Source of the DNA: an uncultured Gammaproteobacteria bacterium
GTDB taxonomy: Bacteria; Patescibacteriota; Patescibacteriia; Patescibacteriales; Patescibacteriaceae
NCBI GenBank assembly: GCA_964599395.1
Contig: CAZRDY010000002.1
Span: forward strand, 189,990 to 253,989
Direction of reading: 5' to 3'
Length of the DNA stretch: 64,000 nucleotides
The first letter of the stretch is position 1, and each line of letters begins with the position of its first letter. Position numbers and translations under genes: made by a program. Shown here piece after piece: positions 37,993 through 39,471 of this stretch. A model generated the notes under the pieces. It was not told the DNA's origin. It made no database searches and saw only the letters and a program-made list of their open reading frames with translations.

Positions 37993-38529
37993 TTGAGTAT
38001 AAAAGTAGTTGTTTCAGGTAGTTTTAAAAAGAACCTGAAAGAAATTGAAGAGATTATTAAAAAACTTAAAGAAGCTGGCGCGGAAATTCTTGCACCACTT
38101 AGTACTAAGACCGATGATCCAACTAAGGATTTTATAATTTTAGTAAGTGATGATCCAAAACTTAGTGAATTTGAACTTGAAAAAAATTTCATGAATTCGA
38201 TTTACAAAAGTGATGCACTAATCATTGCCAACACTGATGGATCTATTGGCCGTAGCGTAGCTGCTGAAATGTCTTTGGCTAAGTTACAGAATATTCCGGT
38301 TATTATTGTTAAACCAATTACACAAGTAACCGAGGAACTTGATCCCTTATCCCAATTATTTATTAAACAAATTCCTATAGACTTATTATCTTTAGAAGAT
38401 ATTAGTAAGGAACGATTTGAAATGATTGGGATAGAAGAAGAAAGAAAGAAAAAACGTATTCTTTCAAAACGTCGCAAAGAAGTTTTGACCAGAAACGTTA
38501 ACACACTTCTAAAATCTTTAAAACGTTAA
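37993..38529 (+). CDS. Nucleoside 2-deoxyribosyltransferase-like (NDT/Rcl fold) protein with basic C-terminal tail
   Basis: TTG start after AAGGA. VVVSGSF...DALIIANTDGSIGRSVAAEMSLA resembles the G-x-S-x3-E-x3-A nucleophile segment of NDT-fold proteins. K/R-rich tail. Tentative. Confidence 0.4.
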   Translation: MSIKVVVSGSFKKNLKEIEEIIKKLKEAGAEILAPLSTKTDDPTKDFIILVSDDPKLSEFELEKNFMNSIYKSDALIIANTDGSIGRSVAAEMSLAKLQNIPVIIVKPITQVTEELDPLSQLFIKQIPIDLLSLEDISKERFEMIGIEEERKKKRILSKRRKEVLTRNVNTLLKSLKR

Positions 38530-38537
38530 AAAGTTTT

Positions 38538-38580
38538 AACTCACCCCTAACCCCTCTCTACGCTCACGCGTAAAGAGGGG
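38538..38580 (+). repeat. Left terminal inverted repeat plus hairpin
   Basis: AACTCACCCCTAAC followed by hairpin CCCCTCTCTACGC-tcac-GCGTAAAGAGGGG. Confidence 0.85.
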
Positions 38581-38617
38581 TATTTTGTATAAAAAATTCT
38601 ATATTTAAAATCTAACT

Positions 38618-38995
38618 ATGAAAATAAAAAAAATACTAATGGCACGAGAATTAAGAAAGTCTCAAACACCTTGTGAAAAAATATTATGGCAAGCGTTAAG
38701 AAACAGACAATTATTAAATTTTAAATTCCACAGACAATTTATACTAGCTGGTTTTATATTAGATTTCTACTGTCCAGCTTTGAAACTAGGAATAGAAGTA
38801 GATGGCAGTATTCATAATTTAGAAGAGAACAAGATCTATGACTTGGTAAGAGAAAAAATATTTAATGAGTATGGTGTTAGTATTATCAGATTTACTAACG
38901 AGAACATAAAAAAGAATCTACCTGTAGTTATACAACAAATCAAAAATAATATTATTAGTTCCCCTCTTTGCCCCGAAGGGGTAGAGAGGGGTTAG
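38618..38995 (+). CDS. DUF559 endonuclease-domain protein (Vsr/restriction-endonuclease-like fold)
   Basis: ARELRKSQTPCEKILWQALRNRQLLNFKFHRQFILAGFILDFYCPALKLGIEVDGSIH is the typical DUF559 core. The last 12 aa (SSPLCPEGVERG) are encoded by the right repeat. Confidence 0.8.
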   Translation: MKIKKILMARELRKSQTPCEKILWQALRNRQLLNFKFHRQFILAGFILDFYCPALKLGIEVDGSIHNLEENKIYDLVREKIFNEYGVSIIRFTNENIKKNLPVVIQQIKNNIISSPLCPEGVERG

Positions 38996-39004
38996 GGGTG
39001 AGTT
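38961..39004 (+). repeat. Right terminal inverted repeat plus hairpin
   Basis: Hairpin CCCCTCTTTGCCCC-gaa-GGGGTAGAGAGGGG followed by GTTAGGGGTGAGTT. A degenerate partial copy (GGGGCTGGGGGTAGAG) follows at about 39022-39037. Confidence 0.85.
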
Positions 39005-39041
39005 GTGCTTGCGGATGAGGAGGGGCTGGGGGTAGAGTACG

Positions 39042-39077
39042 AAAAAAGTCAGCTGTTGGGCTGACTTTTCTTTTTTT
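39042..39077. terminator. Bidirectional intrinsic terminator between convergent units
   Basis: AAAAGTCAGC-tgttgg-GCTGACTTTT flanked by an A run and a T run. Confidence 0.7.
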
Positions 39078-39096: not shown

Positions 39097-39471
39097 TTAT
39101 GCAGTAACTTTTTCCCTGGAGCTTTCCCATTTAATAATTAATAAAGGAATGATCAATGGCCAGCTGAGGAAGAAAAAAACTTTTATTGTTGCTAAGACGA
39201 AATTATTTTCATTAATGCCCAGACTTACGAATAAGAGAATCTGAACCCAAAAATTACAAAGAAACAAAGTAATCCCGTAAAGAAATAAGCAGTCTCTCTT
39301 TTCCGCAGGCCTAATATCGTATGACATAGCTGTCGTGCTTAATATTAAGAGAAGCATAAAGAAATATAAATAGACTGGCCAATTACTCCATAAGTAAAAC
39401 TGATACAGAAATGGAAATAGAAATATGAATTTGAAAAAGAACTTTAAAATAATCTTCAATTTAACCTCCAA
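39097..39471 (-). CDS. Small polytopic membrane protein, unknown
   Basis: 124-aa ORF with 4 hydrophobic segments. An internal TTG at 39459 preceded by GGAGG is a likelier start. Confidence 0.5.
   Translation of the reverse strand: MEVKLKIILKFFFKFIFLFPFLYQFYLWSNWPVYLYFFMLLLILSTTAMSYDIRPAEKRDCLFLYGITLFLCNFWVQILLFVSLGINENNFVLATIKVFFFLSWPLIIPLLIIKWESSREKVTA

Follow-up and report, generated by a model that had tools for sequence, protein, structure and literature searches.

The stretch analysed here, 64,000 nucleotides of contig CAZRDY010000002.1 (termed the window), contains at 38538-39004 an element in which a single small DUF559 gene occupies the spacer of an inverted doublet of BoxC / PIT / TM repeats, with the third blocks of both repeats facing outward. 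We read this feature as a nuclease–repeat partnership of the REPIN-RAYT kind that employs a different enzyme, and assign this reading a probability of roughly one half. The evidence comprises the anatomy of the element, the recurrence of gene and repeats together at other loci, the co-variation of repeat flavour with protein subfamily, and an orthologous allele in which the two repeats stand without the gene.

A repeat search of the window identified the terminal 24-mer AACTCACCCCTAACCCCTCTCTAC as the exact reverse complement of the opposite terminus, and with up to three mismatches allowed this sequence was found at two sites only, namely the two arms (0 of 100 shuffles; Table 1). Each end contains a hairpin with 14-nt stems, formed on the left by 38550-38563 and 38568-38581 (93% paired) and on the right by 38961-38974 and 38978-38991 (86% paired, the two non-Watson-Crick positions being T.G and G.T). 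Folded as single-stranded DNA, both hairpins yielded −10 to −14 kcal/mol, corresponding to z-scores of −3.3 to −7.6 relative to shuffled controls. The perfect repeats with a hairpin inside each end are thus present exactly as claimed by an earlier reading made from the letters alone (the sequence-only reading), and its observation that inner stems and loops differ in sequence yet still pair extends to related elements, where the tips vary with pairing retained (L019, for instance, has CCGCC-aagtc-GGCGG where the window has GC-tcac-GC). A T.G mismatch is found in the hairpin on the G-rich strand of each repeat, at both window ends as well as in nearly all elements of the same flavour (type 1) and in two elements of a second flavour (type 2; L136 and L142). 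The 64-kb window, with a G+C content of 39.6%, holds no other copies of these G4/C4 motifs. The sole gene between the repeats is the DUF559 open reading frame (ORF), for which the domain search returned DUF559 and a weak MTES_1575 match. As had been described, its final ~12 codons and its stop lie within the right repeat, the stop codon TAG (38993-38995) combining the TA that closes the TTA loop with the G that opens the outer block.

Table 1 Features of the DUF559 element and its immediate surroundings, in window coordinates.
Feature	Position	Strand	Basis or remark
178-aa ORF, co-oriented with the DUF559 gene, between Pterin_4a and the element	37993..38529	+	no family match
Left arm of the perfect 24-nt inverted repeat	38538..38561	+	repeat search, shuffle test
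Left TM repeat	38538..38581	-	repeat search; TM detector (38539-38579, minus strand)
Left TM, outer third block CTCACCCC	38540-38547	-	minus-strand reading
Left TM, loop TAA	38548-38550	-	minus-strand reading
Left TM, C-block/hairpin	38551-38580	-	minus-strand reading
AT-rich leader, left repeat to ATG	38582..38617	+	poorly conserved except GGGGTATTTTGTAT; no promoter predicted
DUF559 gene (Vsr-fold PD-(D/E)xK nuclease, 125 aa)	38618..38995	+	Pfam E = 2.5e-30
Right TM repeat	38961..39004	+	repeat search; TM detector (38962-39003, plus strand)
Right TM, C-block	38961-38974		
Right TM, loop GAA			
Right TM, G-block	38978-38991		
Right arm of the perfect 24-nt inverted repeat	38981..39004	+	repeat search, shuffle test
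Right TM, loop TTA	38992-38994		
Right TM, third block GGGGTGAG	38995-39002		
Relic, right half of a type-2 TM	39007..39041	+	loop TGCTTGCG, G-block GGATGAGGAGGGG, loop CTG, third block GGGGGTAGAGTA
Terminator-like hairpin with T-run, belonging to the host transcription unit and lying downstream of the element	39044..39069	+	conserved in L001, L003

Read on one strand, each end consists of a C-block, a complementary G-block, a 3-nt TTA loop and a mirror G/T third block. This is the three-block plan of the BoxC / PIT / TM repeats (C-rich stem, loop 1, G-rich stem, 3-nt loop 2, mirror G/T block), which are likewise GC-rich, intergenic and multi-copy, occur in many phyla, and are found as solo copies as well as inverted pairs of two sub-types. 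A detector based on this plan (8-nt blocks, loop 1 of at most 14 nt, loop 2 of at most 5 nt, at most one mismatch) recovered both ends of the element, which are the only two TMs in the window, and gave no hit in 448 kb of unrelated control loci, which were also devoid of DUF559 genes. Judged on this sequence design, each end is a member of the BoxC / PIT / TM 'intrastrand triplex' repeat family, and not a new kind of hairpin. The repeat is listed as BoxC in PMC2267715, PIT elements have been described by Hoyne & Maher (2000), and the family has been recorded in E. coli and in more than 260 genomes. Holder et al. (2015, PMC4666352) demonstrated triplex formation for E. coli TM oligonucleotides, identified TM loci as rearrangement hot spots, and reported no mobility-related gene or activity and no transposase near TM sites. 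The E. coli TMECO consensus, CCCTCNCCC-N3-6-GGGNGAGGG-N3-GGGNGAGGG, is not matched by the window blocks (CCCCTCTTT.. / ..GAGAGGGG / GGGGTGAG), which agree with it only in loop 2 (TTA, type A) and in overall design; since the block sequences differ from this strict consensus, the window ends constitute a related flavour and not TMECO itself. The window hairpin also exceeds that of the E. coli TMs in length (13-14 bp), and its tip is variable. An exact scan of 185,579 species genomes with the 22-mer CTCACCCCTNNCCCCTCTCTAC yielded 57 loci in at least eight phyla, with up to ~15 copies per metagenome-assembled genome (MAG), distributed over close relatives and Bacteroidales, Balneolaceae, Latescibacterota, Kryptonia, Chloroflexota, Gemmatimonadales, Pirellulales, Cyanobacteria and Mucilaginibacter. 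The compact unit around the 22-mer in those organisms reads CTCACCCC-TNN-[CCCCTCTCTAC nn GTAGAGAGGGG], its opposite strand giving again C-block, loop, G-block, 3-nt loop and mirror G/T block.

For the enclosed protein, a profile search of the PDB returned 3HRL (E = 1.5e-26; Neisseria NGO0050, a DUF559 protein) and 3R3P (the catalytic domain of I-Bth0305I, E = 2.8e-5). The same two structures were the top Foldseek matches of the AlphaFold (AF2) model, which has a predicted local distance difference test (pLDDT) value of 82.5, with the I-Bth0305I domain reaching E = 4e-4 at a TM-score of 0.58/0.72. Further matches were the Vsr-like domains of PvuRts1I and AbaSI, whereas Vsr itself (E = 0.59) and TnsA were weak, and many homologues are labelled Vsr by JGI. 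Inspection of the catalytic residues in the homologue alignment revealed D49, E60, H66 and D75 to be invariant and D62 nearly so. The modelled fold would fit a nuclease that initiates DNA copying. Residues 115-125, which are encoded by the repeat, have low confidence in the model, and repeat-encoded carboxy-terminal tails recur in many homologues (e.g. SPLCPEGVERG, IPSPSPKGEGS, ..ASPLS).

The cassette is present at at least five different loci in related genomes. Among loci picked by protein similarity alone, it occupies the syntenic site in L001, L002, L003 and L023, and is found elsewhere after gyrB (L004-L006), after metG (L019), and at two sites of one Falkowbacteria genome (L134 and L135). 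TM flanks were present at eight of nine independent chromosomal loci picked by protein similarity alone, so that copies at other loci do flank DUF559 genes and closely related DUF559 genes do carry flanks of the same kind, in line with the sequence-only reading. Conversely, among 50 loci outside the close relatives that were selected by their TM, six had a DUF559 gene beside the repeat (Balneolaceae, Kryptonia, Bacteroidales, Rhodohalobacter). The link does not hold for the whole DUF559 family; a Dyadobacter homologue (L137) has short hairpins only.

Repeat flavour and protein subfamily vary together. Type-1 ends accompany the subfamily of the window protein (window, L001, L003, L023, L019, L004, L134, L135), whereas type-2 ends, with different block sequences in the same architecture (CTACCCTACCCCC-nn-CCCCTCCCC... 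/ ...GGGGAGGGG-nnn-GGGGGTAGGGTA), are found in three independent elements (L136, L140, L142/L146) with the paralogous P0018 / P0020 / P0015 subfamily, whose identity to the window protein is ~50%, and type-3 ends accompany P0016 (L144). These regularities bear on another explanation, according to which DUF559 would be an accessory gene, such as a restriction, repair or defence nuclease, that was once trapped between recombinogenic repeats and persists there without acting on them. The rearrangement hot spots at TM loci (Holder 2015) and the many TMs that have no DUF559 neighbour accord with such passive capture, as do the alternation of ycjD with eefRABCD at one E. coli locus and the variable slot between Pterin_4a and the left repeat, which holds the window-specific 178-aa ORF here, an unrelated 150-aa lipoprotein-like ORF in L012, and nothing in L001, L003 and L023, making the position beside the left repeat look like a gene-turnover spot. 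Nevertheless we consider it rather unlikely that the gene is mere cargo: no doublet was seen to enclose any gene but DUF559, distant phyla show the association again with other flavours tracking the protein subfamily, and the orientation of the gene relative to the right repeat is constant, with its 3' end often reading into that repeat.

Gene-less counterparts of the element exist as well. Outward-facing inverted doublets with 15-70 nt between the repeats are the common unit in Latescibacterota, Bacteroidota, Cyanobacteria and the relatives of the window, and among the latter L012, L024, L026 and L058 contain ORF-less doublets, confirming the pairs resembling miniature inverted-repeat transposable elements (MITEs) that the sequence-only reading had envisaged. 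L012 is syntenic with the window, having fmt, a tRNA and Pterin_4a on one side and a Mur ligase on the other, and shows left repeat, 21 nt and right repeat with no ORF where the window, L001, L003 and L023 hold repeat-DUF559-repeat. The same genome retains a DUF559 element after metG (L019). The proposed comparison with an orthologous empty site thereby produced an intact doublet lacking the gene, but no clean empty site. A search with the FG-GAP protein gave seven true but more distant relatives without the element (L064-L070, 48-73% identity), which do not represent clean empty sites because their gene order differs.

Traces of earlier elements adjoin the present one. The degenerate partial repeat noted after the unit, GGGGCTGGGGGTAGAG at 39023-39038, is indeed there, but it belongs to a relic of the second flavour: 39011-39041 is identical over all 31 nt to the right terminus of the L142/L146 type-2 element, and TGCTTGCG is shared with L136. 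The current element joins this relic where the hairpin loop of the relic would be. Relics of type 2 adjoin the type-1 elements of the window, L001, L003 and L019 (in L019 on both sides), and L146 carries a type-1 relic, AACTCACCCCTAT, outside its type-2 element. As relics of each flavour lie beside elements of the other, replacement or invasion at repeat sites has gone both ways between the two flavours. A syntenic relationship between the type-2 element L146 and the window was considered and is not supported.

Further repeat arrangements were observed in the course of these comparisons. The Latescibacterota genome SI047_bin62 contains a ~225-nt MITE-like repeat with a TM doublet as its core in at least eight copies (L010, L011, L027, L028, L030, L041, L047, L061), with an extra hairpin, CCTCGAYGCTTGCRTCGGGG, on each side in direct orientation. 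Bacteroidales MAGs (L016, L017, L040, L053, L063 and others) contain a ~190-nt repeat with one TM unit and TTAAATTGTTAA on both sides, and one of these MAGs has at least 15 copies of the TM unit, none of them near a DUF559 gene. Right repeats may be followed directly by tandem partial duplications of the outer block and flank, exemplified by AGGGGTGAGTTRAGCCRGGTCGGRGGAAGAGTT occurring twice in L023 (3650-3720) and AGGGGTGAGTTGAGTGCGAAGAA twice in L019 (2716-2800).

To determine the age of the element we compared substitution rates. Synonymous divergence (dS) of the DUF559 gene between the window and L001/L003 was 0.67-0.74, within the range of the neighbouring genes (0.46-1.3), indicating vertical inheritance of the element at this site ever since the lineage separated from L001/L003. 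The ratio of nonsynonymous to synonymous divergence (dN/dS) was 0.17, compared with 0.04-0.11 for the neighbours, which indicates purifying selection that constrains the gene less tightly than its surroundings. Against L023, a dS of 0.87 for DUF559 and of 2.3 for the flanking FG-GAP gene hints at a later exchange, although saturation makes this dS comparison weak evidence. Mean pairwise identity across six elements was highest for the repeats (left 0.91, right 0.97), followed by codon positions 1+2 (0.84) and position 3 (0.65), and dropped to 0.35-0.49 for leader and flanks. At the level of sequence conservation the repeats are thus the best preserved part of the element, indicating selection on gene and repeats alike. 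The designation as a minimal selfish element stands as far as a discrete cassette of inverted structured ends with one nuclease gene is concerned, whereas recent movement is not seen here.

The anatomy of the element also recalls a classical transposon or insertion sequence (IS), which could be of the IS200/IS605 type or a MITE moved in trans by a conventional transposase; DUF559 would then be a passenger. Terminal inverted repeats, subterminal hairpins and the multi-copy, MITE-like ORF-less versions would suit this possibility. It is extremely unlikely in light of the lack of a transposase domain in or beside any element examined, of any target-site duplication at the inspected junctions, and of transposases near E. 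coli TMs (Holder et al.). IS200/IS605 elements share the subterminal hairpins, the absence of target-site duplication and the small size with the window element; unlike it, they encode TnpA (Y1 HUH) or TnpB and have no counterpart of its perfect 24-nt terminal inverted repeats. The resemblance of the ends to IS200/IS605 suggested by the sequence-only reading was consequently not borne out, there being no HUH transposase. Terminal inverted repeats are likewise shared with MITEs and DDE transposons, but the target-site duplication of those is not seen. An integron attC site was rejected as a candidate: GTTRRRY-like cores occur at some ends (L004, L023), but an integrase is lacking, the window does not conserve the core, and the ORF sits within the palindrome and not next to it.

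The architecture corresponds much better to the REP/RAYT and REPIN-RAYT systems, reportedly described by Nunvar in 2010, Bertels & Rainey in 2011 and Ton-Hoang in 2012, and the comparison with REP/RAYT drawn in the sequence-only reading fits well. In both, a single-copy nuclease gene is flanked by two inverted structured repeats, and more numerous ORF-less inverted doublets and solo repeats are found elsewhere. Vertical inheritance, purifying selection, repeat flavours that track the protein subfamily and the lack of target-site duplications are further common properties. The differences are that the enzyme here is a Vsr-fold PD-(D/E)xK nuclease of ~120 aa and not an HUH/Y1 transposase (no Y1_Tnp match), and cannot rejoin DNA itself, that the repeats have a third, triplex-type block, and that copy numbers are low, with a few per small genome and 8-15 in some MAGs. 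The homing endonuclease I-Bth0305I (EDxHD / Vsr-like, PDB 3R3P) has the same catalytic fold with conserved acidic and histidine residues, and like a homing endonuclease gene the DUF559 gene is a putative selfish gene present or absent within a conserved site. Here, however, there is no intron or intein, and the DNA-binding region that I-Bth0305I has of its own is without counterpart in the window protein. Moreover, the ORF-less doublet of L012 stands intact in a genome that also has a DUF559 element (L019), a combination that would be incompatible with efficient homing.

A mechanism for the proposed nuclease–repeat partnership can be outlined from these properties. The Vsr-fold nuclease would target the repeat flavour that accompanies it, probably in the form of an extruded hairpin or cloverleaf, the targeted structure carrying the conserved T.G mismatch on the G-rich strand as a possible recognition feature, and would nick or cut the repeat. 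By host recombination, gene-bearing and gene-less doublets alike would then be copied or replaced at further repeat sites, this part being assigned to the host because a PD-(D/E)xK nuclease cuts DNA but cannot rejoin it. Spread would proceed by break-induced gene conversion, with ORF-less doublets and solo repeats as the non-autonomous form. Nicking followed by host recombination would explain the relic junctions at hairpin loops and the rearrangement-prone TM loci (Holder et al.).

Several observations weigh against this partnership. A 125-aa PD-(D/E)xK nuclease is minimal, having no joining chemistry and no separate DNA-binding domain. The sequence divergence indicates that the element has not moved recently at this locus and has been static for long, no target-site duplication was detected at the 10 junction pairs inspected, and neither a clean empty nor an excised site was encountered in the related loci. 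In the TM-selected sample outside relatives of the candidate phyla radiation (CPR) type, 44 of 50 loci had no DUF559 gene nearby, this cross-phylum sample being biased by its selection with the exact 22-mer, and the flavour co-variation is based on few elements (eight type-1, three type-2 and one type-3). None of 80 DUF559-homologue loci on viral contigs had a TM or a comparable inverted flank, and the type-1 22-mer was absent from 2.9 million viral contigs; phages as vehicles were rejected on the same findings. The window doublet has its third blocks outward, whereas E. coli inverted pairs face inward (Holder Table 1). Finally, TMs are kept in all 5,426 complete E. coli genomes, though 38% of these lack the E. 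coli DUF559 gene ycjD.

The latter gene is itself associated with the repeat family. The repeat CCCCTCGCCCCTCTGGGGAGAGGGTTAGGGTGAGGGG, of which E. coli genomes have a median of 19 occurrences, is located ~170 nt 3' of ycjD and is TMECO no. 9 in Table 1 of Holder et al. 2015 (PMC4666352), and a degenerate TM copy overlaps the ycjD stop codon. The gene is present in 3,378 of the 5,426 genomes (62%). In two ycjD-lacking genomes examined (L138, L139), the fabI-sapF site contains the eefRABCD efflux operon, in agreement with a published account of eefRABCD occupying the ycjD site, in which at least two independent replacements were inferred (PMC12817139). These genomes were rejected as empty sites, with eefRABCD present and no TM at the sapF junction. 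As a separate observation, in E. coli K-12 (NC_000913, 1351040-1351830; L133) the 3' end of ycjD recurs in degenerate form (ggagacggtgctggagaatattc...) between ycjD and fabI, ahead of TMECO no. 9, as if two DUF559-TM cassettes had succeeded each other there.

Conserved sequence and a Vsr-like fold could also denote a host guardian, i.e. a domesticated structure-specific or mismatch endonuclease that processes TM hairpins or triplexes at replication and whose gene lies beside the repeat for regulation or co-inheritance. Long vertical inheritance under purifying selection, the T.G mismatch conserved in the hairpins, and the block that TM oligonucleotides impose on polymerases in vitro, as cited in Holder et al. 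2015, are compatible with such a role. With regard to Vsr repair endonuclease, the protein belongs to the same superfamily and T.G is the hallmark Vsr substrate, but there is no adjacent cytosine methyltransferase and the structural similarity is weak, as given above. A guardian function appears unlikely, in that E. coli strains lacking ycjD appear to retain a normal TM number, and it would explain neither the location of the gene inside the doublet nor the ORF-less allele at the same site and the reciprocal nesting of flavours.

If the nuclease–repeat partnership is generalised, small chromosomal DUF559 proteins, YcjD and NGO0050 included, would be the missing enzymes of the BoxC / PIT / TM repeats, with subfamily-specific recognition, perhaps by way of the hairpin with its T.G mismatch, and nicking plus host recombination driving repeat duplication, replacement and rearrangement, and they would form a second REPIN-RAYT-type replicator with a distinct mechanism, ranging from Patescibacteria to Enterobacteria. 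We put forward this extension only tentatively and consider it somewhat doubtful. It would provide one testable explanation for two families: the repeats have been known for ~30 years, are highly conserved across hundreds of genomes and are rearrangement hot spots, with no function, origin or associated gene assigned, and DUF559 is a very large family with solved structures and no assigned role. It would also define a second nuclease–repeat replicator in bacterial chromosomes. The interest is fairly high because both the origin of TMs and the role of DUF559/YcjD are directly testable in E. coli, where ycjD is naturally present in 62% of the genomes and absent from the rest. Published BoxC / PIT / TM work reports no associated gene and no mobility function, in contrast to the gene-enclosing doublet of the window, and our literature search found nothing linking DUF559 or ycjD with BoxC or triplex repeats; the DUF559–repeat link hence appears to be new, the repeat family and the protein family each being already known.

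We also analysed the chromosomal context of the element with regard to its expression. It begins 8 nt past the stop of the 178-aa ORF and ends ahead of the host terminator, as the sequence-only reading had described, whereas the 'NDT' label it gave to the preceding gene could not be confirmed, this ORF having no Pfam or NCBIfam match. A promoter scan inside the element predicted none, and in all 10 of the independent loci the gene upstream points the same way as DUF559. With no promoter of its own, a co-oriented host gene always upstream and, here, a host terminator downstream, DUF559 is probably expressed by read-through transcription. Such a transcript could give the repeats a purely RNA-level function, in which the read-through mRNA would be stabilised or processed by way of a ~40-bp long-range stem or of two local hairpins, serving as a REP-like stabiliser or as an RNase III site as in rRNA intervening sequences, and the repeats would not function as DNA. 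The computed RNA structure of 38530-39045 indeed pairs both ends over ~40 bp (minimum free energy −124 kcal/mol, z = −4.0), the placement of the element between a co-oriented gene and a terminator would be suitable, and the T.G and G.T positions of the right hairpin are wobble pairs in the sense RNA. In the left hairpin, however, the sense RNA contains a C.A mismatch, the strand that permits wobble pairing being, at each end, that end's own G-rich strand. As the T.G is kept on opposite strands at the two ends, an RNA explanation is less natural than one at the DNA level. Solo repeats and ORF-less doublets in many intergenic contexts, the lack of promoter or terminator activity of PIT elements (Maher and colleagues, as cited in Holder et al. 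2015), and the lack of an Rfam match at gathering score for the window region or for 10 related loci likewise argue against an RNA device, which we regard as very unlikely. Below that score, the Bacteroides small RNA BTnc231 matched weakly over the left repeat (38550-38634, minus strand; 25 bits versus a threshold of 80, E = 0.013), and this family might contain a TM-like hairpin.

The neighbours of the element are genes for Pterin_4a, a HAD hydrolase, a NUDIX protein, the 178-aa ORF and an M23/FG-GAP protein. Adjoining the element on the minus strand, a 124-aa ORF (39097-39471) has 53% identity to its L001 counterpart, as compared with ~93% for the neighbours, no detectable match in L003, and is absent in L012, and is a fast-evolving or replaceable small protein. 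Milman et al. 2023 (PMC9881135), in a gene-family table of predicted programmed-inversion targets, list a 14-fold enrichment for 'DUF559 domain-containing protein', which might be due to overlapping inverted TM repeats and not to true inversion switches. The records of the closest relatives (L001/L026/L056 CAZASI, L012/L019/L058 CAZQHN, L023/L024 CAZVMF) are deposited as 'uncultured Gammaproteobacteria'. The DUF559 genes of CAZASI, CAZQHN and CAZVMF have their nearest counterparts among Candidatus Falkowbacteria proteins, and these records have AT-rich DNA and a gene content in the style of small genomes; the 'Gammaproteobacteria' label of these relatives may be wrong.

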